This document shows positions 5,752 through 18,971 of a DNA stretch of 32,000 bases, in pieces. The stretch covers positions 4,260,001-4,292,000 of the forward strand of contig NZ_CP147990.1 in NCBI RefSeq assembly GCF_037902255.1. The letters are read 5' to 3'. Position 1 is the first letter of the stretch. Each line of letters opens with the position of its first letter. Source of the stretch: Candidatus Electrothrix sp. GW3-4 (lineage in GTDB: Bacteria > Desulfobacterota > Desulfobulbia > Desulfobulbales > Desulfobulbaceae). A program made the translations under genes and the position numbers. Under the pieces are notes generated by a model. That model saw nothing but the letters and a program-made list of their open reading frames with translations. It did no database searches and was not told where the DNA came from.

Positions 5752-7848
5752 ATGGATGAGAATGAATTTTTTCGGGAAGCGACATTGAGGATCTGTGGCA
5801 ATCTGGAGATCGAAAAAGCACTTTTTTTCGCTTTAAAATACATGCGACAGGTAATGCCGGTTGATCATATGTTCTTTCAGTTTTATGACGAGGAACATAA
5901 TGCAATGCATATCCTTGCTGATGCTTCGCCAGAGTGTGGCCGGATCGTTGATCTGCAGGTGAAATTATCTGTCGGAGCCAGACAGGAGTTGATGCAGTTT
6001 CGAGAGGAATTCAGGCACAAAAAGTCAAAATTTGTATGGCTCTTTCGAGACAACCCAAGAAAGCAGAAACTTACAGATGAGATATTTAACTCGCTTGGGT
6101 ATTCAACAACTTCTCTTATGGTGTTCCCTTTAGGCCTTAAATTCCAGGAATTACTTGGGGGCGGCTCACTTATTCTTTCCTCTGAAAGTGAAAGCAAGTT
6201 TAGTCAACAACATGTCGAGCTACTCTCACTGGTCCGAGAACCCTTTGCAATTGCTCTGTCCAATGCCCTCAAACACAGAAGTGAACTTAAACTCTATGAC
6301 AGGGATTTTTTTTGGGAGATTACTACACGAATTTGCGGAAACCTGGAAATTGAAGAAGGACTCCGATCCTGCCTGGAACTCCTCTCCCAATACATGCCAG
6401 CAGACAGCCTTTACCTGGAAAGGCACGAAAGGAACTTTGGCGCGATGCATATGATAGCAAGGGCAACAGCCGACAAGAGTGAAAAAATGGATGTGCTGAT
6501 CCCCTTTACCGAAGAGGGCAAAGCAAAAATGGCAATGTTGGCCCAGGAATGGATAAAGGGAACACTTCCTTCAGTCCTGGTCATCAACAACCCACGAGAA
6601 GAACCTGTTACAAAACATCTGCTCAAGACTCTTGGTGAACCACCTTCATCTGTCATGAGCCTGCCCCTCTTCCTCAAAGAGGAAATCGCCGGAGCATTGG
6701 TCGTTATAGCCGAGGGGGACAACCGATTTACCGAACAACACGCAAAGCTCTATTCCAACCTGAGGATGCCATTTTTTGTGGCCGTGTCAAACACTCTGAA
6801 ACATAGAGAAATAATTAAACTCAAGGACTTGCTTGCCGATGACAATCGCTACCTGCAGGGGGAGCTACGCCGTTTGTCAGGCGACGAAATAGTTGGAGCG
6901 AACTTCGGATTGCGGGATGTCATGTACAAAGTCCAGCAGGTTGCGGCTCTGAACAGCCCGGTTTTGTTGTTAGGAGAGACCGGCGTTGGCAAGGATGTGA
7001 TCGCCCAAACTATTCATTATTCCTCATCCCGCAGTGATGGTCCTTTTGTGAGCGTAAACTGTGGGGCCATCCCAGAGAGCCTGATCGACAGTGAGCTGTT
7101 CGGGCACGAAGAAGGTGCGTTTACTGGAGCGATAACGCAAAAACGTGGTCGCTTTGAGCGGGCCAATAAGGGAACGATTTTTCTTGATGAAATCGGTGAA
7201 CTGCCTCTCCAGGCCCAGGTGCGTTTGCTGCGGGTCTTACAGAGCAAAGAGATTGAGCGGGTTGGAGGCGTAGAAACCATTCCTCTTGATATCCGAATTA
7301 TTGCCGCGACAAATCGCAATTTAGAGAAAATGGTCGCGCAGAATACATTTCGTGAAGATCTCTGGTTTCGCCTCAATGTATTTCCCATCCAGATCCCGCC
7401 GCTTCGCGAGAGAAAAGAAGATATCCCGGCCTTGCTGCAATATTTTATTCGGCAAAAGACCAAAGAACTGAATTTACCCGCAGTGCCCAGTATTTTTCCT
7501 GGAGCTATAGATTTTCTCCTGAGCTACTCTTGGCCAGGTAACGTCAGGGAGTTGGGAAATATTGTAGAGCGGGCTATGATCCTCAATTCGGCAGGGCCGC
7601 TGACGTTTGATCATCTTAATCCGGTAGATACAAAGACAAATACGGAGGAGATCTCATCGCATCAGAAAGAGCAAGCTCTTGACCTGGATAGTGTTATCTC
7701 ACGGCATATTCGTTCTGTCTTATCTCAAACAGATGGTAAGGTGAATGGGGAAGATGGGGCAGCTGCTCTTTTGGGAGTTAATCCCAGCACGCTGAGGAAT
7801 AGAATGAAGAAGCTTGGCATTCCTTATGGGAAACAGCGGTATCTGTAG
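5752..7848 (+). CDS. Sigma54-dependent Fis-family transcriptional activator with two tandem GAF-like sensor modules
   Basis: The AAA+ core has GETGVGKDVIAQ (Walker A), GAFTGA, and RLLRVLQSKEIERVGG through RIIAATNRNL. The C-terminal Fis-type HTH has AAALLGVNPSTLRNRMKKLGI. The N-terminus contains two paralogous modules that each open with FF(R/W)E(A/I)T(L/T)RICGNLEIE. Confidence 0.9.
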   Translation: MDENEFFREATLRICGNLEIEKALFFALKYMRQVMPVDHMFFQFYDEEHNAMHILADASPECGRIVDLQVKLSVGARQELMQFREEFRHKKSKFVWLFRDNPRKQKLTDEIFNSLGYSTTSLMVFPLGLKFQELLGGGSLILSSESESKFSQQHVELLSLVREPFAIALSNALKHRSELKLYDRDFFWEITTRICGNLEIEEGLRSCLELLSQYMPADSLYLERHERNFGAMHMIARATADKSEKMDVLIPFTEEGKAKMAMLAQEWIKGTLPSVLVINNPREEPVTKHLLKTLGEPPSSVMSLPLFLKEEIAGALVVIAEGDNRFTEQHAKLYSNLRMPFFVAVSNTLKHREIIKLKDLLADDNRYLQGELRRLSGDEIVGANFGLRDVMYKVQQVAALNSPVLLLGETGVGKDVIAQTIHYSSSRSDGPFVSVNCGAIPESLIDSELFGHEEGAFTGAITQKRGRFERANKGTIFLDEIGELPLQAQVRLLRVLQSKEIERVGGVETIPLDIRIIAATNRNLEKMVAQNTFREDLWFRLNVFPIQIPPLRERKEDIPALLQYFIRQKTKELNLPAVPSIFPGAIDFLLSYSWPGNVRELGNIVERAMILNSAGPLTFDHLNPVDTKTNTEEISSHQKEQALDLDSVISRHIRSVLSQTDGKVNGEDGAAALLGVNPSTLRNRMKKLGIPYGKQRYL

Positions 7849-7878: not shown

Positions 7879-9573
7879 TCATTCTATAGCCACAGCCTCA
7901 ATCGTACTGCCGTCAGTGAGCAGGAGGTAGGATTTCAGCTTGGGCAGTTTTTTGACCTCTGCAAGCTGCTGATAGGCTTTGATTTGCTCGATTCCTTCTG
8001 TCCGTTTTTCCTCCAAACCACGCTTGCCTGCCTTTTTCTTGCTGTATTTCAGTTCAAAGAGAAACTGATAGCGCACCTCAATAGGGTTGCGCTCCAATAG
8101 AAGAATATCCGGGTAGCGGTTGTTCATCTCAGTCTCACTCTGAATAAAATAGACCTCAGACTGGTACAGCAGAGTCAGGATAACGGCCTTGATGTGTTTT
8201 TCATCCATACGCATGAAATCACGATTGGAAAACAGAGCCAGCACGTTACTGATTTCCTTAATCAGGGGTTTGATATTATTATGTAAAGCTAGTTCAGTCA
8301 CAGCATTTTCAACGGCTCGGCTTGAAACCGTGATCCGACCACGTTGCTCAATCTCTGTTCTGAAGTAATCGTAATATAATTTCTGGACGACATAATTTGG
8401 CACCCTATAGCGATACTGGCTCAGAACGCTGCCGCTGAGGGTGATAAAGCCCATGTAGAGGAGAAGGCTGATGAAGTCGTTGCGTTCAAAGGGTTTGTTT
8501 ATGTCCAGGTCAAGTTTCCCCTTATGTCGCCCGATGATCTCACCTTCGGTGATTAATTCTTCAAGGATCTGAAAATTCTTTTCCCGATCGCCGATGCCGA
8601 AGAGCCGCATGATTTTTCCATAATCCGAGGCGATATTGTCATCCAGCATTTGCTCTGGAAAGCGGCATGTGTCCATGTCAAAATGTCTGAGAAAATAGAG
8701 CACCATGTCCGGGTTGAAGATTTTCTCATCAACGCGGCTGCTGAAACAGTAGCCATTATACCACTTGCTGAGGGTACCCATGATCTCCTGACAGTCAATT
8801 TTGCAGGTTTCAACAATAGGGAGGATCATCTTTTCTGTTTCCTGGGTGGTAAAACCAATGGTCTGGTTAAAATGAGGATGATACGTAATATTATCACCGA
8901 TATTAAAACCACTGGTCATGCTGTCCAAGGTAATGGAGGTCACTCCAGTGATGAAGAGGCGATCAATAATTCCCTCCATCGTGGCGGTCTTGACGGTCTC
9001 ATAGAAGGCCCGGACAAACCCGCCTTTTCCTACGATGGCACAAAAGAGCTCCTGATCCTCGCCAAGCACGGCATTGGCGAAATGATCATATTCGTCAATA
9101 AGCAGATAGATTTTTGCGTCTTTCACGACCCCTAAAAAAGCCTTCATCATGGATGCCGGTGTAGACTGCATCTCCACCCTGTGAATAGCCTCGGCAGGGT
9201 ACTTATACTCTTCGAGGAAATTTCGTAATCTCCTGCTCACCTCAAAAGCGAAGTCGCGCTCAATGCTCTCTTCGTCTTTGATACTGACCCCGCTGAACTC
9301 CATGAACAGAACCTGGTAGCTGTTCCGCAGTGGAGTTGGATTTTTGCCGATGGCAAGCCTGCTGAAAAGTTCCTCGAACGAGTCCTTAAAACGAATATCG
9401 TAATAATGCCAGAGGGTGGAGAGGAAAAGGGTTTTGCCGAAACGGCGGGGGCGGAGCAGGATGTTGTATTTTCCCTGGTTTTCGAGGGTTTCTATAAAGG
9501 GTGTTTTGTCAACGTAGAGGTACCCCTCTGTGATAAGGGACTTGAAGTTGCTGATTCCGTACGGGGTTTTCAT
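7879..9573 (-). CDS. AAA-ATPase-like domain protein with a C-terminal PD-(D/E)XK nuclease-type domain
   Basis: 564 aa. The N-terminus MKTPYGISNFKSLITEGYLYVDKTPFI...LLRPRRFGKTLFLS is characteristic of the predicted AAA-ATPase family. The C-terminus has YPDILLL ... FELKYSKK (D...E-x-K). Confidence 0.8.
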   Translation of the reverse strand: MKTPYGISNFKSLITEGYLYVDKTPFIETLENQGKYNILLRPRRFGKTLFLSTLWHYYDIRFKDSFEELFSRLAIGKNPTPLRNSYQVLFMEFSGVSIKDEESIERDFAFEVSRRLRNFLEEYKYPAEAIHRVEMQSTPASMMKAFLGVVKDAKIYLLIDEYDHFANAVLGEDQELFCAIVGKGGFVRAFYETVKTATMEGIIDRLFITGVTSITLDSMTSGFNIGDNITYHPHFNQTIGFTTQETEKMILPIVETCKIDCQEIMGTLSKWYNGYCFSSRVDEKIFNPDMVLYFLRHFDMDTCRFPEQMLDDNIASDYGKIMRLFGIGDREKNFQILEELITEGEIIGRHKGKLDLDINKPFERNDFISLLLYMGFITLSGSVLSQYRYRVPNYVVQKLYYDYFRTEIEQRGRITVSSRAVENAVTELALHNNIKPLIKEISNVLALFSNRDFMRMDEKHIKAVILTLLYQSEVYFIQSETEMNNRYPDILLLERNPIEVRYQFLFELKYSKKKAGKRGLEEKRTEGIEQIKAYQQLAEVKKLPKLKSYLLLTDGSTIEAVAIE

Positions 9574-9616: not shown

Positions 9617-11554
9617 TTAACTTTTTGATTGAGTCCACTCTCCTTTTAGATCCAACGTATATGGCGGCAGGTCATAGGAAGGGCCTACACAGTATTCGGA
9701 GTTATTAAGTTCCTCATCAATGTATGAAGTTGTTAAAATAACTTGATGTGGAATCTTGATTTTTTTTGAATAATCAATCAACAAGTGGTGAAACTTCCTA
9801 AAACGTTCAGGAACCATCCCTTTGTCTTCAATGTTGTCGAGGATAAAAAATTTTGGTAGGCGGCATTGATCATCCTCAATTGCAAATTTGAGGAGGCCTA
9901 AGTAAAAGGAGTTTTTCAAAAATGCTTGTGTGCTTGCAGAAAGGCGGCCTTGACGTACAGATAAAAAATCTTTTTCAAAAGAAAATACCAGCCCAGTAGC
10001 ATCATTCAATGTATCATTATTATTGTCTACAATGTCTTCATGGAGAATCTCAATGGTGAGGTCACCAATGCGTTTTTGGCAATGATTTCTCCTGAACTCC
10101 TGGTCGTCCTTCAACTTTTTTAATTTTTTTTCAATCTTTTTAAGGTCCCGAGCAAGTTGTGTTACTTCATCTTCTAGTTTTATTACCTCTTCTTGAAGAG
10201 ATTCTAATTTCGTGAGGTCTTCAATCTGTCGTGTAAGATATCCATGATCTTTTAGTAGTTGGCTAATTCTTGCATCAAAATGGACAGTTGGAGATATTAT
10301 CGTCTTTAGTTGATCTAAAAGTCGATTACGCGCTGTACGTAGCTTTTTAAAATTTGCTTGTTCTTCAATTACTTTTTGTTTTCTCCTTTCACATATCAGT
10401 TTACTTTCAGATATTTGATGTTTGAGTTCCTGCTCGTAACGAATTCTTCCCCCAGTATTTGCATCCCTTTCATTGTTTGTTTTGCATAAAGGGCAACATC
10501 CTTCCTTTGTTGGGGAAAGGTCAGCAAGGCAAATTGGGCAGAAAGCCAATGTTACGCTACCAATAAGTTCTTGAGTTTTACTTGCGGCTTTGAGATCTCT
10601 AAGATTAGATTCAAGCGAGGTGAGAAAAATTTCAGAATCGGCAATATTAATAGAAAGACTTTCTATCGACCTCCTAGCATCTTCTATTTCTTTATTCTTT
10701 TTTGAAATTTCTTTTTCTAATTGTCTAATTTTTGAGTTTTCTTCTTTTTTTCTTTCGGCCCTTTGTTGCACTTGTTTCGATGCTTCTTCAATTGATTCCT
10801 CGATATCATACTGCTTGCCCTGAGCTTCTTTAAGTAGCTCTTTATAATTAGAGAGGGTAAAATTTGGATCTGTTGTTTCTACTGCTTCTAGCAGGCTTTC
10901 ATAGCGTGATTTTTTAGATGCTAATTGTTTTGTTTTTTCAATTTGTTCAAGACGAAGCTCATGACCTTGAAGATCATCAATCCCCAATAGCATTTCACCA
11001 ACACAGCGTCGTATATCCAGCCGGTCTGCAAATGCTTGTCTTTCTCTACGAAAAATCGATGTACTGTCCGTATTCTGATCGCCATAAAGTAAACGAAGGA
11101 TTTGGTACATCGTCACATTTGCATGCGAGTCGTTTGATTTAGTTTGTGGAAACCCAATACGATCAAACATGAATTGGGAGAATGATTCTTTGTTTGTAGT
11201 TCTTGTTCTTCCATACGAACTCCACCGCATAACGAATTTCGTCGTTTCATCAAGTGGTCCTTCACATATTTCAACTGGAGGAGGAGTTTCTGAAGAAATA
11301 GCCCTTTTGAGACTTATCGTTAACTCTGGAACGTCAAATTCTGCAAAAATATATTCACAGGATTGAGCCTCGTCTGTCCATTCAATATTTTCACCACCAA
11401 GCACATAAAAAATCATATCGCTAATGGTTGATTTACCGCTACTGTTCTCCCCTCTGATGATATTTATCCCTGTATGGAATGGTTGGTCATACACAATACG
11501 ACCATGCCCGGTAACTTGTAAGCGTTTCAAGAGCAGGTAAGGGTTATCCATCAT
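9617..11554 (-). CDS. Rad50/SMC-like ABC ATPase with a long coiled-coil insert and a Cys-rich hook (LmuB / ABC-3C ATPase-like)
   Basis: 645 aa. Motifs are Walker A GENSSGKST (nt 11426-11452), Q-loop LLYGDQ, two ~130-150 aa heptad-rich K/E/L/I segments flanking CPICLADLSPTKEGCCPLCK (nt 10484-10540), signature-like GRLSASTQ, Walker B FFILDNIED and a His in IPHQVIL. The start overlaps the upstream gene by 11 nt and has a GGAG RBS. Confidence 0.85.
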   Translation of the reverse strand: MMDNPYLLLKRLQVTGHGRIVYDQPFHTGINIIRGENSSGKSTISDMIFYVLGGENIEWTDEAQSCEYIFAEFDVPELTISLKRAISSETPPPVEICEGPLDETTKFVMRWSSYGRTRTTNKESFSQFMFDRIGFPQTKSNDSHANVTMYQILRLLYGDQNTDSTSIFRRERQAFADRLDIRRCVGEMLLGIDDLQGHELRLEQIEKTKQLASKKSRYESLLEAVETTDPNFTLSNYKELLKEAQGKQYDIEESIEEASKQVQQRAERKKEENSKIRQLEKEISKKNKEIEDARRSIESLSINIADSEIFLTSLESNLRDLKAASKTQELIGSVTLAFCPICLADLSPTKEGCCPLCKTNNERDANTGGRIRYEQELKHQISESKLICERRKQKVIEEQANFKKLRTARNRLLDQLKTIISPTVHFDARISQLLKDHGYLTRQIEDLTKLESLQEEVIKLEDEVTQLARDLKKIEKKLKKLKDDQEFRRNHCQKRIGDLTIEILHEDIVDNNNDTLNDATGLVFSFEKDFLSVRQGRLSASTQAFLKNSFYLGLLKFAIEDDQCRLPKFFILDNIEDKGMVPERFRKFHHLLIDYSKKIKIPHQVILTTSYIDEELNNSEYCVGPSYDLPPYTLDLKGEWTQSKS

Positions 11555-12056
11555 ATCTAAACTCCAGCAGACCTGTGCGATCTTTCAAACCGCCTCTTCC
11601 GTTTAAAGGTATTGACAATACAACATTTATCAGTTTTTCATGCCATTCCTCATTACGTATTTTCCACTCCTCTGCAACAGAGGTTATAAAATCGTAAGCA
11701 TGGGCTTCCTCAATGTTTAGAATTAAGGTACCTTCTTGGTATTTTTTTCGTTGTATTATTCCACGAGCAACCATATCCATGGTCACCTGCTTATGGATCT
11801 TGGTCATAGGGAGAAATGCTTGCCTGATAGATTGCGGATCTTCATAAGTTTCTGGTAATTGCTTTATTTTTCTTCTTAGCTCTGCGCTATCTTCCCTGGG
11901 TAGCTTGCATTTCCTGATTTCATGTGGGAAGCAGAGTAGAAAGTCTAAAATTCGAATACGGTCAAATTCTGTCCCTTTGTGACCGCATTCACATAGGATA
12001 GAAGCAAATCGCATCCAACAGTGGTAGAAATCAGTTGCGGGATGATAGAGCAGCAT
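11544..12056 (-). CDS. Small helical protein, candidate middle component (LmuC / ABC-3C MC-like) of the ATPase operon
   Basis: 170 aa from the ATG at 12056; the track ORF begins at a TTG at 12071. It overlaps both neighbours (26 nt upstream, 11 nt downstream). The sequence MLLYHPATDFYHCWMRFASIL...FDRIRILDFLLCFPHEI has no enzymatic motif. The function is inferred only from position. Confidence 0.6.
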   Translation of the reverse strand: MLLYHPATDFYHCWMRFASILCECGHKGTEFDRIRILDFLLCFPHEIRKCKLPREDSAELRRKIKQLPETYEDPQSIRQAFLPMTKIHKQVTMDMVARGIIQRKKYQEGTLILNIEEAHAYDFITSVAEEWKIRNEEWHEKLINVVLSIPLNGRGGLKDRTGLLEFRYDG

Positions 12057-12615
12057 TGTAGTCCCAATCAAGGTGGCAGTTTCCTGTTAAATAATATAAC
12101 ATTCCAATAACTTCAGTTATTCCTACCCCAAGGGCAGGGGGCGCGTTAGCAATTTGGCTAGTGATAGAGCGTGCTAGCCCTACAATCTCTTGTTCAATAG
12201 CTCCAACTTCCTTCATTGTAGCAATTTTCGGTTTAATGAGATAATTGAAATGCGAATAAATTTCACCGAGTATGTAGGAATATATTTCCTGAATGGCAGG
12301 ATTAAATGTAGTCCTTTTGAGCTGTTTGGTGAAACGTTCTTTTGCCTCTAACGCATCATAGAGAAGGTAACTTTTATCACAATCTTTTAACTTTTGTTCT
12401 AAATCTCTTTTGATAAGCGTATCTTTAGGAGTCATCCAATCAAGCAATTTTTCAACAAATTTAGCAGCTTCAGGGTCTTGACCTATTTTCTCTTTTAACT
12501 GTTCTATTATTCCAGACAGTTGAGTGTTTGGAGCTTGATATATTATGGTTTTACTTTTGTCTATATCCCTCCCAGCAACATCGCCCTGAGCCGTTATGTT
12601 TTCTTGGGTAGCCAT
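12031..12615 (-). CDS. Helical protein with an N-terminal ITAQGDVAGRDI peptide, candidate effector-adaptor component
   Basis: 194 aa. Its ATG shares a TAATG with the stop of the upstream gene. The N-terminal 20 aa repeat the motif of the upstream protein. The remainder is predicted helical and ends in ...MLYYLTGNCHLDWDYN. No catalytic motif is recognised. Confidence 0.65.
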   Translation of the reverse strand: MATQENITAQGDVAGRDIDKSKTIIYQAPNTQLSGIIEQLKEKIGQDPEAAKFVEKLLDWMTPKDTLIKRDLEQKLKDCDKSYLLYDALEAKERFTKQLKRTTFNPAIQEIYSYILGEIYSHFNYLIKPKIATMKEVGAIEQEIVGLARSITSQIANAPPALGVGITEVIGMLYYLTGNCHLDWDYNAALSSRN

Positions 12616-12950
12616 TATTTTTTCTTGAATATATTTCCACCAGCGACATCGCCGTTAGCAGTTATGTCCTTTTGGATGGTCTTTTTCTTTTCTTTAGTTG
12701 AACCGGCATGTTCCGGTGAATGTTCTTTGTAGGTTTTGATAATATCTCCGCCCGCAACATCACCACCAGCTTTAATCTTCGATTGCTTAGTTTGCTGTTT
12801 TCTAAAATGGTGGACTGTAAGGCCTCCGCCTCCTATGATCAGCGAAATTATAAATATGATCCATCCTGATAAACCAGTTTCAAGTAATTTGTCCATAATT
12901 TTTTGATATTGATTGCTTTTTGTTGATAATGGCCCCCTTCTATCACTCAT
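12615..12950 (-). CDS. Small single-pass membrane protein with two GDVAGG(D/N)I repeats
   Basis: 111 aa. It has a TM helix LSGWIIFIISLIIGGGGLTV (nt 12813-12875), then a Lys-rich tail with GDVAGGDI (12741-12764) and GDVAGGNI (12630-12653). It is the first gene of the four-gene operon. Confidence 0.6.
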   Translation of the reverse strand: MSDRRGPLSTKSNQYQKIMDKLLETGLSGWIIFIISLIIGGGGLTVHHFRKQQTKQSKIKAGGDVAGGDIIKTYKEHSPEHAGSTKEKKKTIQKDITANGDVAGGNIFKKK

Positions 12951-13159: not shown

Positions 13160-13414
13160 AACTCTTTTTTAGGGTACAGATACTGACTCCCTCTTTTTAA
13201 CGTGCAGTTTTTTAAGCACTTATTTTATACTGTTTCAGTGTCATCCCGAATACAGGATACGTGTTGAGGGGTTACAGAATTCGCTGTGACTCCTTTTTTA
13301 TTTTTAAATGGTTGTTTGCTCGGCAAACAGCGAGTTTTTTTTATCCGAATTCCAAGGGGATCAACGGGAGCGGATAGAATCAGCGGCCAGGCAGCTGTAA
13401 CAGAGGAATAAGAG

Positions 13415-15499
13415 ATGAACAAAGATCTGGAGAAAGTACGGAATATAGGCATCAGTGCCCATATTGATTCGGGCAAGACAACACTTACCGAGCGAATCCT
13501 TTACTACACACAGCGCATCCACGCTATTCATGAGGTACGCGGTAAGGACGGTGTTGGAGCAACCATGGATTCCATGGAACTGGAAAAAGAGCGCGGTATC
13601 ACTATTCAGTCAGCAGCGACCTACTGCTCATGGAAAGATATTGATATCAATATTATTGATACACCGGGCCATGTGGACTTTACCGTTGAGGTGGAACGTG
13701 CTTTGCGGGTGCTTGATGGCGCTGTCCTGATCCTCTGTTCTGTGGGCGGTGTGCAGTCGCAGTCCATTACGGTTGATCGCCAGATGACCAGGTATAATGT
13801 TCCACGTATTGCCTTTATTAATAAATGTGATCGAACAGGTGCTAATCCAGAACGTGTTGTCAACCAGCTGCGAGAAAAGCTGAACCTTAATGCGGTCATG
13901 ATTCAGCTGCCCATCGGCTTAGAATCAGAGCTGGAAGGGATGGTCGACCTGGTGACCATGAAGGCGATCTATTTTGATGGAGAGCAGGGCGATCAACTTC
14001 GTTATGAAGAGATCCCTGACCACCTGAAAGATGATGCTGAGGAGAAACGGGAAGAGCTGTTGGATGCAGTATCCATGTTCTCAGAAGAGTTGATGGAGGC
14101 CATGCTTGAAGAGGAAGAAATCCCTGAAGAGCTGATTCAGGCCGCTATCCGGAAAGGAACTCTGGATCTGGAACTGGCCCCGGTCATGATCGGTTCTGCC
14201 TATAAAAATAAGGGGGTTCAGCCGCTTTTGGATGCCGTTGAAATGTACCTGCCCTGCCCGACTGATATAGAAAATACCGCCCTTGATCTGGATAAGGATG
14301 AAGAGGAAAAGACTGTCTCTAATAACCCGGATGATCCGCTGGTTGCATTGGCCTTTAAACTGGAGGACGGCCGTTATGGTCAGCTGACCTATGTTCGTAC
14401 CTACCAAGGCGTTTTGAAAAAAGGTGAGAACATTTTCAATACCAGAACCGGCAAGAAGGTCAAGGTTGGCCGTCTCGTTCGTATGCATGCCAATGAGATG
14501 GAGGAAATCGATGAGGCGGGTTCCGGTGACATCGTTGGTCTCTTTGGTGTGGACTGCGCTTCCGGTGATACCTTTTGCGATGGTAAGATTAACTGGTCCA
14601 TGAGTTCCATGCATGTACCGGCACCGGTTATCTCGCTGGCCATTACCCCGAAAGACAATAAGGCCCAGGATAATATGTCCAAGGCCCTGAACCGTTTCAG
14701 CAAGGAAGACCCGACCTTTAAGACCTTTGTTGATCATGAGACCGGCGAGACCATTATTTCCGGTATGGGGGAGCTGCATCTTGAAGTGTACATTGAGCGT
14801 ATGAAACGTGAGTACAAGGCCGAGGTAGAGGTCGGTGCTCCCCGGGTTGCCTATCGCGAGGCTATTACCCAGCGAGCCGAGTTCAACTACACCCATAAGA
14901 AACAGACTGGTGGTTCTGGTCAGTTTGGTCGCGTAGGCGGCTATATGGAGCCGTTAGAAGAGGAAGAGTACGAGTTTGTTGATGAGATCGTGGGTGGTGC
15001 TATCCCCCGTGAATACATCCCATCCTGTGATAAGGGCTTCCAGGCTTCCATGGAAAAGGGGATGCTGATCGGTGCTCCTATTACCGGTGTTCGTTGCCTG
15101 ATTAACGACGGAAGTTACCATGCGGTGGACTCCTCGGATATGGCCTTTCAACAGGCTGCTAAGGGCGCTTTCAAAGAGGGCTACAAGAAGGCTGGAGCGG
15201 TTATTATGGAGCCGATTATGAAGGTGGCTGTGGAAGGTCCCTCTGAGTTTCAGGGTGCGATTATGGGGAGCTTGAATCAGCGACGTGGCATGATTGTCGG
15301 TACCTCTGAAGAGGGCAACTATACTGTGGTAGAGGCGGATATGCCGCTGTCTGAGATGTTCGGCTATTCAACCACCCTACGCTCTCTGACCCAGGGAAAG
15401 GCGGAATTCACAATGGAATTCTCAACGTATAAGCAGGTTCCTAAGAGTGTTTCTGAAGAGCTGATTAAGGAATACGAAGAATCCAGGAAAAACGGATAA
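13415..15499 (+). CDS. fusA: Elongation factor G (stand-alone paralogue, mitochondrial EF-G1-like subtype)
   Basis: 694 aa. It has [17 protein letters not shown] and NKCDR GTPase motifs and full domains II-V. The switch-I region [31 protein letters not shown] resembles the mtEF-G1/spd-type EF-Gs. It is not adjacent to rpsL/rpsG/tuf. Confidence 0.95.
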
Positions 15500-15522: not shown

Positions 15523-15548
15523 GCAGCCTGCCTGTGCTTGCAGGCTGC
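15523..15548 (+). other. GC-rich stem-loop between EF-G and the next gene
   Basis: A perfect 9-bp stem, GCAGCCTGC (15523-15531) / GCAGGCTGC (15540-15548), with an 8-nt loop. No T-tract follows, so it is not a canonical terminator. Confidence 0.3.
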
Positions 15549-15590
15549 GTGAGCGATACGAACGAGAGACGAAAAATAAGAGGTAGTATC

Positions 15591-16289
15591 ATGGGATATG
15601 AACCGTTGGTGAAAAAAAATCCGTTACGGGTTCTGAACTTAGCCGGAAATAATAAAAAAATGGGCCTGATCATGGCCCGGGCAGGTGTGGGAAAAACCGC
15701 TCTGCTGGTCCAGATAGCCTTGGATTCCATTCTGCGCGGAAAGCGGGTTGTCCATATCAGTATTGATGAAAACCTGGAAAAAACCAAGCTTTGGTATGAT
15801 GATATCCTGGAGGTTATCCTTCAGGAATGCTCTGTAGCTCAACCTCATGAGCTGATTGAGATGGTCCAGCAGCACCGGATGATTATGACCTTTAAGGAAT
15901 CTACCTTTAATCGGGCGCGTCTGGAAGAACGTCTGAACGATCTGATTCTGCAGGATATCTTTAAGCCAGATTGTGTGGTGATTGATGGTTTTGATTTTAC
16001 AAATATGGATCACGATCACCTGGAAGATATCAAAAACCTGATGGAAAATCTACGGTTACAGGTCTGGTTTTCCGCGACCAGCCATCGTGAGGATGACCGC
16101 GTATCTCCCTCTGGAGTACCTGCGCCCTGCCATGAGCTTGATGACCTTTTTGATACGGTTGTCCTGTTGCAACCTGAGCAGGAAAATGTCCAGCTGGAGA
16201 TCATCCGCCATAATAGTGATGTCTGCAGCGGTGATTCATGTCATCTGAGCCTTGATCCGGTGACCATGATGGTTAAGCAGGGTGACTAA
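15591..16289 (+). CDS. RecA/KaiC-superfamily P-loop ATPase, function unknown
   Basis: 232 aa from the ATG at 15591 (RBS AAGAGG 8 nt upstream). It has Walker A MARAGVGKTALLVQ and Walker B DCVVIDGFD. The layout resembles single-domain KaiC/RadA-like proteins. Confidence 0.6.
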   Translation: MGYEPLVKKNPLRVLNLAGNNKKMGLIMARAGVGKTALLVQIALDSILRGKRVVHISIDENLEKTKLWYDDILEVILQECSVAQPHELIEMVQQHRMIMTFKESTFNRARLEERLNDLILQDIFKPDCVVIDGFDFTNMDHDHLEDIKNLMENLRLQVWFSATSHREDDRVSPSGVPAPCHELDDLFDTVVLLQPEQENVQLEIIRHNSDVCSGDSCHLSLDPVTMMVKQGD

Positions 16290-17235: not shown

Positions 17236-17690
17236 CTTCTCTATTGTCTTGATCTGTCGTTGTTCGTGTTTGTTGGAGGCATTGAGGAGACGAAGTGAGC
17301 AATTATTGCTCCTGACGTAAAGAAGGAGCAATAATGCATCACGAAAAAGAAGGGATTGCTGACAGTGACAAAAATGCTTTTGCAACGGACTTGCCAATAG
17401 TTTTTACGCTTTTTTGTTGACAAATACAATCCATCTGTTTAAGTTCGCCAGCTAAATAAGATGATCTGATAAAAAGTCAGGAGTCAGCAAATCGCTCACG
17501 GCAACTCAATGAGTTACGGTGCGATTTTCTGTGAAAATTGGACTTTTTACGAAACCATCAAATACGTAATCAATAAGGTAAAGCGTTGTTGTTTTCCTGA
17601 AAAACACCTGCATACCTGTTGGATTTTCAGTAAGTTTGTACGTTTTTTACGTTTACCTTAATATTATAACATTCTTGAGGAGGAACACCG

Positions 17691-18971
17691 ATGGCAAAGC
17701 ATGATACGCCTTTGTTGGACGAACTGGAAAAAGGCCCTTGGCCAAGTTTCGTTACCGACATGAAGCGCCAGGCAGAGACCCACCCTGAATGCTGGGACAT
17801 TCTCGGTCAGCTGGAGCTTTCGTTCAAAGACAGAATTACACACTGGAAGCATGGCGGTATCGTTGGTGTTTTTGGATATGGCGGCGGTATTGTAGGACGT
17901 TACTCTGACGTTCCTGGTAAATTCCCCGGCGTTGAGCATTTTCATACCGTTCGTATCGCACAGCCTTCTGGTCTGTACTACTCCACCAAGAACCTGCGGG
18001 CTCTGATGGATCTGTGGGATAAGTACGGATCTGGTATGACCAATATGCATGGTTCTACCGGTGACATGATCTTCCTCGGTACCCGTACCGAAAACCTGGA
18101 GCCCCTGTTCTGGGACCTGACCCATGATCTGGATCAGGATCTTGGTGGTTCCGGCTCTAACCTGCGTACTCCCTCCTGCTGTCTGGGTGAGTCTCGTTGT
18201 GAGTGGTCCTGCTACGATGCGCAGGATGTTTGCTACCACCTGACTATGCATTACCAGGATGAGATCCATCGTCCTGCCTTCCCCTATAAGTTTAAATTTA
18301 AGTTCTCCGGTTGCCCGAACGACTGTGTTGCTTCTATCGCTCGTTCTGACTTTGCCGTCATCGGTACCTGGAAAGATGACATCCAGGTTGATCAGGCAGG
18401 TGTTAAAGAGTACATGGCTGGCAACTATCCGGCAAACGGTGGTGCTCATGCCGGTCGTGACTGGGGTGCCTTTGACATCCAGAAAGAGGTCATCGACATC
18501 TGCCCGACCGATTGTATGTGGATGGAAGGCGATGAGCTGAAGATTGACAACTCCGAGTGTACCCGTTGTATGCACTGCATCAACGTTATGCCTCGCGCTC
18601 TGAAACCGGGTAAAGAGAAAGGCGCAACCATCTGCATCGGTGCTAAGGCTCCGATCCTGGACGGTGCCCAGTTCGCTACCATGGTCATCCCCTTTATCGA
18701 AGTCTCCAAAGACAACGAGTACGAGAATCTGATCGACGTTATTGAGCAGGTTTGGGACTGGTGGATGGAAGTTGGTAAGAACCGTGAGCGTGTTGGTGAG
18801 ACCATGCAGCGTATCGGCCTGCCCACCTTCCTGCGCGTTATGGAAGTTGATGCTATGCCGCAGCATGTGAAAGAGCCGCGTTCTAACCCCTATGTCTTCT
18901 GGAAGGAAGAGGAAGTTGAAGGCGGATTTGAGCGTGACGTTGAAGAGTTCCGTAGGAAGCATGCAGCGTAA
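17691..18971 (+). CDS. dsrA: Dissimilatory sulfite reductase alpha subunit
   Basis: 426 aa. The N-terminus [25 protein letters not shown] is typical of DsrA, with siroheme/FeS Cys clusters ([12 protein letters not shown]; CPNDC; CTRCMHC). A strong RBS GAGGAGG is present, and dsrB follows. Confidence 0.95.

Follow-up and report, generated by a model that had tools for sequence, protein, structure and literature searches.

The DNA analyzed here, called the window below, is a 32,000-nucleotide (nt) stretch from Candidatus Electrothrix sp. GW3-4, a cable bacterium (contig NZ_CP147990.1, positions 4,260,001 to 4,292,000). Within it, four minus-strand genes are chained by overlaps into one operon, which an earlier note, made from the letters alone, had proposed as a candidate defense system of the Lamassu type II or ABC three-component (ABC-3C) class. 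We report profile searches, structure models, and a comparison of related loci, which suggest that the effector of this operon has not been lost but has moved to a tiny upstream gene.

Layout and family of the operon

All four open reading frames (ORFs) are in the ORF listing of the window (Table 1), and their junctions read as the earlier note had described them. Genes 1 and 2 meet in the sequence TAATG, with one base common to both, at 12615; genes 2 and 3 overlap by 26 nt (12031-12056) if gene 3 starts at ATG 12056; and genes 3 and 4 overlap by 11 nt (11544-11554), with GGAG placed 8-11 nt 5' of the ATG. We prefer ATG 12056 to the upstream TTG as the start of gene 3 because position 1 of the Pfam MC5 model aligns to residue 7 of the TTG form and because homologous loci have the identical 26-nt overlap. 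The AT-rich patch described earlier was also recovered, with a G+C content of 0.379 over 9617-12950 compared with 0.46-0.50 in neighboring genes and 0.472 in the whole window.

Table 1. Features of the four-gene operon (window coordinates; aa, amino acids; TM, transmembrane)
Feature	Position	Strand	Description
Gene 1	12615..12950	-	Small single-pass membrane protein, 111 aa as annotated; likely 93 aa from ATG 12896
TM helix, gene 1	12813..12875	-	aa 26-46 of the 111-aa form, GLSGWIIFIISLIIGGGGLTV
Motif repeat 1, gene 1	12735..12785	-	aa 56-72, QSKIKAGGDVAGGDIIK
Motif repeat 2, gene 1	12624..12674	-	aa 93-109, QKDITANGDVAGGNIFK
Gene 2	12031..12615	-	LmuA-type protein without effector domain, 194 aa: N-terminal motif, helical linker, CTD9
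N-terminal motif, gene 2	12556..12606	-	Single copy, aa 4-20, QENITAQGDVAGRDIDK
CTD9 domain, gene 2	12064..12405	-	aa 71-184; presumed docking and oligomerization domain
Gene 3	11544..12056	-	MC5 (LmuC equivalent), 170 aa from ATG 12056; first start codon of the ORF is TTG 12071 (175 aa)
Gene 4	9617..11554	-	LmuB-type SMC/Rad50-like ABC ATPase with coiled-coil insert, 645 aa
Walker A of LmuB	11426..11452	-	G35-ENSSGKST-43, K41; G.N..GK at least 90% conserved across 36 family members
Cys4 zinc-hook-like cluster, coiled-coil apex	10484..10540	-	C339, C342, C354, C357; CP.C ... C.LC at least 90% conserved
Signature-like LSAST and atypical Walker B/D-loop	9815..9943	-	LSAST, aa 538-542; FFILD573-N-I-E576-DKG; S.S and D..E..G at least 90% conserved

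The last gene encodes an ATPase that matches the PADLOC LmuB model PDLC03862 over aa 3-575 (E = 3.1e-49); eight LmuB models match below 1e-9, and phrog_1637 of the PHROGs collection matches at 1.3e-85. The earlier note had credited this protein with every ABC ATPase motif. In an alignment of 36 family members the Walker A motif, the Q-loop Gln, the SxS signature, and the Walker B Asp are indeed kept, together with the Cys4 hook, but the canonical Walker B Glu is replaced by an Asn directly after the Asp (conserved D-N-I-E), and no H-loop His is evident. An atypical Walker B has been reported for LmuB/DdmC, with which the D-N-I-E agrees. The Cys hook that had been noted in the coiled coil is present as well, in the form of a conserved Cys4 cluster, C339-P-x-C342 ... 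C354-x-L-C357.

One could suppose that this ATPase is a housekeeping repair protein of the SbcC/RecN/RecF/SMC type and that its neighbors are incidental. Sequence searches of the PDB with the ATPase, MC5, and a CTD9 profile returned only P-loop matches to SMC heads, or noise, and these weak, P-loop-only matches are what would favor such a reading. Against the NCBIfam equivalogs, however, where SMC/Rad50/SbcC cut-offs span 300-1087 bits, the ATPase scores only 9-52 bits (52 versus 300 for ASRP, 36 versus 729 for SMC, 29 versus 700 for Rad50, and 9 versus 920 for SbcC). The LmuB profiles match it end to end, its synteny with MC5 and CTD9 is fixed, it lies in an AT-rich patch, and its relatives occur in a P4 satellite hotspot in E. 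coli. The equivalog scores, the LmuB match, and the synteny rule out a housekeeping SMC/SbcC identity, and we see practically no chance for the wider repair-protein reading. Thus, two of the results that the earlier note had named as telling against its proposal came out otherwise: the ATPase does not fall among the housekeeping SMC/Rad50/SbcC families of NCBIfam, and its homologs are syntenic with those of the upstream genes.

The other two core proteins belong to families named for ABC-3C systems. The 170-aa protein is the ABC-3C middle component 5 (Pfam PF20291, MC5) over its full length (E = 4.5e-37) and also matches PADLOC LmuC (3.3e-4) and phrog_13252 (8e-32). The 194-aa protein carries PF20285, CTD9, the C-terminal domain 9 of ABC-3C systems, at aa 71-184 (E = 3.8e-25; score 89 against a curated cut-off of 27.9 bits); this is its sole Pfam family above the curated cut-off. 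It also matches phrog_13193 over aa 5-185 and is named an ABC-three component system protein by NCBI. The MC5, CTD9, and LmuB families are known already. Judged from these sequence matches, the operon almost certainly belongs to the Lamassu/ABC-3C family, as had been proposed.

A motif shared by the membrane protein and the CTD9 protein

An LmuA protein usually has an enzyme at its N terminus and a docking domain at its C terminus (PMC10586767). In the 194-aa protein only about 70 residues precede CTD9, and no effector domain was found there with Pfam, NCBIfam, PADLOC, or PHROGs profiles. Its 71 close homologs are similarly short (134-203 aa, typically about 183-203 aa). In an AlphaFold2 (AF2) model, aa 1-34 are disordered, with a predicted local distance difference test (pLDDT) score of about 33, and aa 32-178 are helical. 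The earlier statement that the operon lacks a recognizable enzymatic effector was borne out by these searches and by the disordered N terminus. At the other end of the protein, the CTD9 C terminus (12064-12100, minus strand) contains an invariant L-T-G-N-C-x-x-x-W (aa 176-184), which could be a metal or contact site, perhaps opposite the Cys4 hook of LmuB.

The product of gene 1 has no match in Pfam, NCBIfam, PHROGs, or PADLOC. It is probably 93 aa long rather than 111, because its 47 homologs, of about 90-98 aa, begin at Met19 (ATG 12896). From its N terminus it consists of a TM helix with an invariant GLSGW, a basic stretch, and a tail with two motif copies; since the basic stretch comes after the helix, the tail is likely cytoplasmic. 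The same arrangement led us to reject a signal peptide, in which basic residues would come before the hydrophobic helix and not after it. A TM helix is typical of the position: 74 of 78 equivalent upstream ORFs have a 19-aa Kyte-Doolittle window of at least 1.6.

The motif, noticed earlier as GDVAGxDI repeats, is present in both upstream proteins; it is repeated only in the 111-aa protein, where two copies lie 37 aa apart around a 14-aa P/G-containing loop, and the 194-aa protein has a single copy. In the 194-aa family it reads Q-x-N-[IV]-x-A-x-G-D-V-A-G-[RG]-[DN]-I-x-K and is kept down to 30% overall identity. Residues that are identical among the three motif copies of the window are encoded by different codons at 4-7 of 11 positions, which argues that the likeness is kept at the peptide level. 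This codon divergence also rules out a recent DNA duplication as the origin of the gene 1 repeats.

We then asked how general this pairing is. Related loci were collected from GTDB species genomes (80 loci), IMG/VR viral contigs (4), and metagenomes (80), together with exact-protein look-ups, giving 148 unique CTD9 proteins, of which 137 could be evaluated (133 short proteins and 4 long "all-in-one" proteins). The gene order CTD9, MC5, ABC ATPase is kept in 83 of 85 loci, which answers the question of synteny raised by the earlier note. Directly upstream of 128 of the 133 short CTD9 proteins (96%) lies an ORF with the motif in its last 32 aa, at a median gap of 2 nt; 120 of these 128 ORFs are at most 130 aa long and have a strongly hydrophobic TM helix. 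Between partners, the segment in common is 19 aa long at the median, with 59% identity. Two motif copies, as in GW3-4, occur in 14 of the 128 effectors.

The loci span at least a dozen phyla. They occur in Bacteroidota, Gammaproteobacteria and Alphaproteobacteria, Desulfobacterota, Verrucomicrobiota, Acidobacteriota, and Gemmatimonadota, as well as in Myxococcota, Elusimicrobia, Chlorobi, and Cyanobacteria, and all four genes are intact in more than 100 lineages. The split motif pair is therefore the rule for the CTD9/MC5 subfamily and not a peculiarity of the GW3-4 genome. When 1.84 billion representatives were searched with a profile of the small protein, there were only 39 matches; because sequence profiles recover such short, divergent peptides poorly, synteny is the effective route to the partners. 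The same profile also matches two phage tail-fiber-like proteins (P0124 and P0125; 1889 and 745 aa) with 8-16 tandem units of TATGN[VI]SGGN[IL]TT, and the motif may be related in form to such beta-helical fiber repeats.

The two motif copies of a locus also vary together. Among 39 representatives with less than 60% CTD9 identity, mean motif scores were 58.3 for cognate pairs, 36.1 for non-cognate pairs, and 21.3 for shuffled tails (permutation p <= 1e-4), and in a larger set of 51 representatives the cognate protein ranked first among the possible partners 15 times, where about 1 would be expected. Divergent motif types are matched within loci: GGDVVGRDK is found on both sides in Shewanella-type loci, NGDYxGRDK in both proteins of E. 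coli (as NVxxNGDYxGRDK) and Pantoea, GGDQAGRDI in many Bacteroidota, NIQSGxDTN in locus L077, and QQNNGNNSVNYQAE on both sides of a cyanobacterial locus (L058). Independent drift from a common ancestor would not favor cognate pairs, so the two copies coevolve. Co-variation of this kind would also arise if both motifs tracked one coevolving receptor of the same operon, and the two proteins could then be recognized by a common third party, such as an LmuB/MC5 pocket, a host protease, or a chaperone. We consider this quite improbable: there is no known candidate site, published Lamassu structures show LmuA's N-terminal part without contacts to LmuB or LmuC, the motif region is disordered and exposed by prediction, and a fusion of TM helix, motif, and CTD9, described next, is more easily explained by direct pairing.

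Several exceptional loci bear on what the motif does. In a metagenome-assembled genome (MAG) of Riflebacteria (L003; 4689-6008), the gene upstream of CTD9 encodes a 439-aa calcineurin-like phosphoesterase (Metallophos) that ends in two motif copies, GDLAGNNI and GDLAGGSV. Elsewhere an enzyme is fused directly to CTD9 at the motif's position and no small ORF lies upstream; the fused part is an alpha/beta-hydrolase or serine esterase in L064 and L080, a Cap4 nuclease in L132, and an HNH-like N-terminal region in L084 (judged by eye, with no Pfam match). Finally, a Polaribacter MAG (L036; 5857-6528) carries a TM helix, one motif copy, and CTD9 in-frame in a single 223-aa ORF. Together, the phosphoesterase, the enzyme fusions, and the Polaribacter ORF indicate that the motif takes the place of an effector domain on LmuA and marks separately encoded effectors. 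Adaptor and amyloid-signaling modules are built on the same principle and come in both split and all-in-one forms (10.1101/2020.01.06.895854). We conclude that the motif very probably couples genes 1 and 2 functionally, by direct and specific motif-motif contact.

These loci show other features as well. The Polaribacter ORF looks as if the sequence between the motifs had been deleted; it might represent a natural "Rosetta stone," or the deletion might be inactivating. At the Riflebacteria locus, the operon lies between MmeI-type restriction-modification and HNH genes on its upstream side and a Peptidase_U49 gene downstream. In two Desulfocapsa-like loci (L001, 3481-4965; L002, 1751-3235), the small TM gene is closely preceded on its own strand by genes for a Zn-dependent phospholipase C and a Cys-rich protein of 147 aa; HipBA comes ahead of these two genes, and type I restriction-modification genes follow the operon. 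The phospholipase C and Cys-rich genes are probably separate island cargo, because they are not in the window.

Proposed mechanism and the nature of the coupling

At a probability of about 0.6, we read the operon as a four-gene Lamassu abortive-infection system of the MC5/CTD9 subtype, in which the effector is split from LmuA and a shared motif couples LmuA to a membrane peptide. The gene 1 product itself is probably the membrane effector. The earlier note had offered either a membrane-acting, non-enzymatic effector variant or a distinct system, and the evidence favors the first.

Published work on a related system suggests how such an operon might operate. In cryo-electron microscopy structures of a Cap4-CTD7 Lamassu, LmuA's C-terminal domain (CTD) is an oligomerization domain that is held by the LmuB dimer together with LmuC; DNA ends and ATP free LmuA, which then oligomerizes and becomes active, and the same study remarks that CTD9 proteins are predicted as cyclic oligomers by AlphaFold 3 (AF3) (bioRxiv 10.1101/2025.03.14.643221). 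By analogy with these structures, LmuB and MC5/LmuC would form an SMC-like DNA sensor, with CTD9 sequestered by the LmuB dimer and LmuC in the resting state. Aberrant or foreign DNA, such as ends or replication structures, together with ATP-driven head engagement, would free the adaptor; the freed CTD9 would self-associate and so gather the N-terminal motifs. The gathered motifs might then serve as a beta-arch template that recruits and converts the tails of the membrane peptides by homotypic amyloid-like stacking, and the resulting array of TM helices would breach the membrane and kill the infected cell. For the templating and membrane-killing steps we draw on analogy with NWD2/HET-S and Bab/Agp and on the AF2 model of gene 1. 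The scheme as a whole, with an SMC/Rad50-type sensor signaling to a membrane-killing peptide by prion-like amyloid templating through an effector-less LmuA adaptor, is tentative, and we give it somewhat less than an even chance.

Several features are consistent with amyloid-like coupling. Relative to background, the shared segment is enriched in N (2.9-fold), G (2.1-fold), Q (1.5-fold), V (1.5-fold), and I (1.3-fold) and depleted of P (0.01-fold) and L (0.16-fold). The AF2 model of the 93-aa form, built with 46 homologs, has a helix at 2-22 and two sets of strands, 33-43, 47-48, and 52-55 and 70-80, 84-85, and 89-92; the two repeats form equivalent, in-register beta-arch rungs with an exact +37 offset and block-mean pLDDT values of about 71-88. 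A Foldseek search of the PDB with this model returned only three matches, the HELLF, FapC, and HET-s amyloids, none of them significant. Amyloid motifs have been recognized elsewhere by a shared motif in adjacent genes, alternative effectors, and "all-in-one" fusions (10.1101/2020.01.06.895854). NLR oligomers nucleate amyloid templates when their motifs are clustered, a condition that oligomerization of CTD9 would reproduce for the disordered N-terminal motifs. From the model and these analogies, an amyloid or prion-like coupling of genes 1 and 2 is a possibility that we would place somewhat below even odds.

Other observations weigh against all or part of this interpretation. The motif is enriched in K (1.6-fold) and D (2.0-fold), while described BASS motifs are Lys-depleted. 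The amyloid fold matches have E values of 2.8-8.3 and probabilities of at most 0.08, and the AF2 model is a monomer. Most effectors (114 of 128) have a single repeat, and the gene 1 protein has a bare TM helix with no Bell- or HeLo-type domain. On the adaptor side, a Foldseek search of the PDB with the CTD9 model gave no significant match, with LmuA chains appearing only at E values of 3-9 and TM scores of 0.30-0.44. These values do not establish a likeness to the solved LmuA CTD7, so oligomerization of CTD9 rests on the published AF3 remark. Finally, 28 phages were tested against a "Lamassu missing a known effector" taken from a P4 hotspot, which may have been of another subtype or cloned without the small ORF, and none was held off (PMC13586616).

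The charged motif, the single copy in most partners, and the non-significant amyloid matches would sit well with a plainer account, in which the motif is an ordinary stoichiometric beta-strand contact and the small protein an anchor or regulator, with killing by another route. The small protein might then hold the Lamassu complex at the inner membrane, for example near DNA entry sites, or restrain the adaptor, and any specific heteromeric contact would explain the adjacency and co-variation equally well. However, this account leaves the system without any effector. The motif sits where sister proteins have nuclease, lipase, or HNH-like domains and also tags a Metallophos enzyme, and the two-repeat/one-repeat arrangement with in-register AF2 rungs is typical of templating systems. 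We therefore regard the stoichiometric account as unlikely.

The P4 result could also be taken to mean that the effector is truly lost, leaving a three-gene remnant that is inactive or only binds DNA, beside a small ORF that is unrelated or spurious. This is very improbable given that the small ORF is found in 96% of loci in many phyla, at translational-coupling distances and with a conserved TM helix. Moreover, the motif is kept at the peptide level despite codon divergence, and more than 100 lineages retain the four genes intact.

Genomic setting, prevalence, and comparison with known systems

In the window, the operon was said to lie between a sigma54 activator and EF-G. This is correct for the EF-G gene (13415-15499), which is separated from the start of the operon by a 460-nt gap. 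On the other side, a gene at 7879-9573 intervenes between the operon and the sigma54 activator (5752-7848). This minus-strand gene is the operon's immediate downstream neighbor. In its 564-aa product, a PF09820 domain (predicted AAA-ATPase) is combined with a PDDEXK_9 nuclease domain; the gene's G+C content of 0.464 puts it outside the AT-rich patch, and it may be a separate defense-type or mobile gene. No tRNA, Rfam family, or flanking repeat was found marking the borders of the patch, and a promoter scan gave scores no better than those of shuffled sequence. Terminator-like hairpins with T-runs lie on the plus strand in the gap between the operon and EF-G (13266-13335), with no plus-strand gene upstream and no Rfam match.

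Farther away, a plus-strand ORF just past EF-G (15534-16289) encodes 251 aa that weakly match AAA_22 and nSTAND3 (novel STAND NTPase 3); STAND proteins are usually longer, and the ORF may represent a fragment. A 130-aa PIN-domain protein encoded on the minus strand (2371-2763; E = 1.2e-17) is probably the toxin of a toxin-antitoxin pair. A 432-aa minus-strand ORF (17664-18962) is antisense to, and nearly coextensive with, a NIR_SIR (dsrA-like) gene on the plus strand (17691-18971), and is most likely a shadow ORF of a GC-rich gene.

The same four genes occur in 9 of 5,426 complete E. coli genomes. In E. coli NIPH17_0036 (L169, NZ_AP024561.1 2933530-2936652), they lie beside tRNA-Leu in a P4-like satellite, between the integrase and the ogr/psu genes; the int-psu interval of P4-like satellites is a documented antiviral hotspot (PMC9122126). 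In this strain the product of the small ORF is WP_001472782.1, and the other three proteins are WP_001472783.1, WP_024203853.1, and WP_001472787.1. The E. coli small ORF, of 56 aa, is a RefSeq "hypothetical protein" in eight of the nine records and is not listed in the other, so it is easily missed. Related loci also adjoin type I and II restriction-modification and HipA genes. No match to the 194-aa protein came up in a tblastn search of 50,697 phage records; PHROGs families exist for three of the four proteins, and the 4 IMG/VR contigs carry the system.

Lamassu systems are present in roughly 10-15% of prokaryotic genomes. A published survey (Haudiquet et al.) describes a short-Lamassu clade (clade O) that has "seemingly lost the effector" and reports no membrane protein or shared motif in it. 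This description fits the CTD9 subfamily, and the two may be the same. Within the literature library that was searched, which covered work other than the founding ABC-3C paper (Krishnan et al. 2020), no paper combines Lamassu or ABC-3C with amyloid, and we found no relevant report that links LmuA with CTD9, with a fourth gene, or with a membrane effector.

If our reading is true, it may account for the "effector-less" clade, provided that clade O is the CTD9 subtype, and it might explain the negative P4 Lamassu test, provided that the same subtype was used and the small ORF was omitted. Four-component Lamassu systems with a membrane protein of about 50-100 aa would then form a common but overlooked subtype, one that reaches as far as the P4 satellites of E. 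coli. Defense systems would be able to exchange effectors through a portable peptide tag and not by domain fusion. Should the templating part also hold, it would link oligomerization-gated SMC immunity with amyloid-type signaling. Amyloid signaling in bacteria has so far been reported with NLR-like receptors and the TPR protein Agp, and would thus reach past NLR/TPR sensors and multicellular bacteria. The P4-satellite operon of E. coli NIPH17_0036 offers a tractable model, and annotation pipelines and models of the DefenseFinder/PADLOC kind should take in the small ORF.

Among known systems, the closest in gene order are the Lamassu type II/ABC-3C systems with fused effectors, such as V. cholerae DdmABC and Salmonella LmuACB (Cap4-CTD7, MC3, and LmuB). 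Like them, the GW3-4 operon has overlapping genes and encodes a family-specific CTD and an ATPase of the LmuB type whose Walker B is atypical; the sequestration and release of that CTD are presumably shared too. It differs in that its LmuA lacks the N-terminal enzyme and has a motif of about 19 aa instead, while a fourth gene encodes a motif-bearing membrane peptide. It also belongs to the MC5/CTD9 subfamilies, its LmuB has a Cys4 hook, and its proteins have no sequence match to solved Lamassu chains.

The membrane protein and its pairing resemble Bab/Agp (BASS11), in which amyloid signaling in E. coli antiphage defense leads to a protein of about 109 aa with an N-terminal hydrophobic helix (10.1101/2024.11.07.622273). 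Both involve two adjacent genes in which an executioner of about 100 aa carries an N-terminal hydrophobic helix and a C-terminal motif that is matched at the N terminus of the sensor side; both are found in prophages or defense hotspots, and the membrane is the target in each, on our reading of gene 1. However, Bab has a folded four-helix "Babybell" domain, whereas the gene 1 protein has a bare TM helix.

Similarly, fungal NWD2/HET-S and the bacterial NLR/Bell pairs of BASS1-10 have a short motif, rich in G, N, Q, V, and I and poor in P and L, at the C terminus of the effector and the N terminus of the receptor, encoded in adjacent collinear genes. In HET-s/NWD2 and BASS1/6, as in GW3-4, two pseudorepeats joined by a flexible loop on the effector face one copy on the receptor. 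BASS pairs come with alternative effector domains as well as in "all-in-one" fusions (10.1101/2020.01.06.895854), and so do the pairs described here. In contrast to BASS1-10, the sensor side in GW3-4 is the CTD9 adaptor of an SMC-like complex and not a NACHT/NB-ARC STAND protein, and the motif is more charged. BASS1-10 are confined to multicellular bacteria, whereas the CTD9 pair is widespread in unicellular Bacteroidota, Gammaproteobacteria, and others.

In CBASS and other abortive-infection systems, small TM effectors are believed to oligomerize after a cytoplasmic signal and to kill by disrupting the membrane in this way. Those effectors are activated by binding nucleotide second messengers, whereas the presumed trigger at the GW3-4 operon is a protein-protein motif match.

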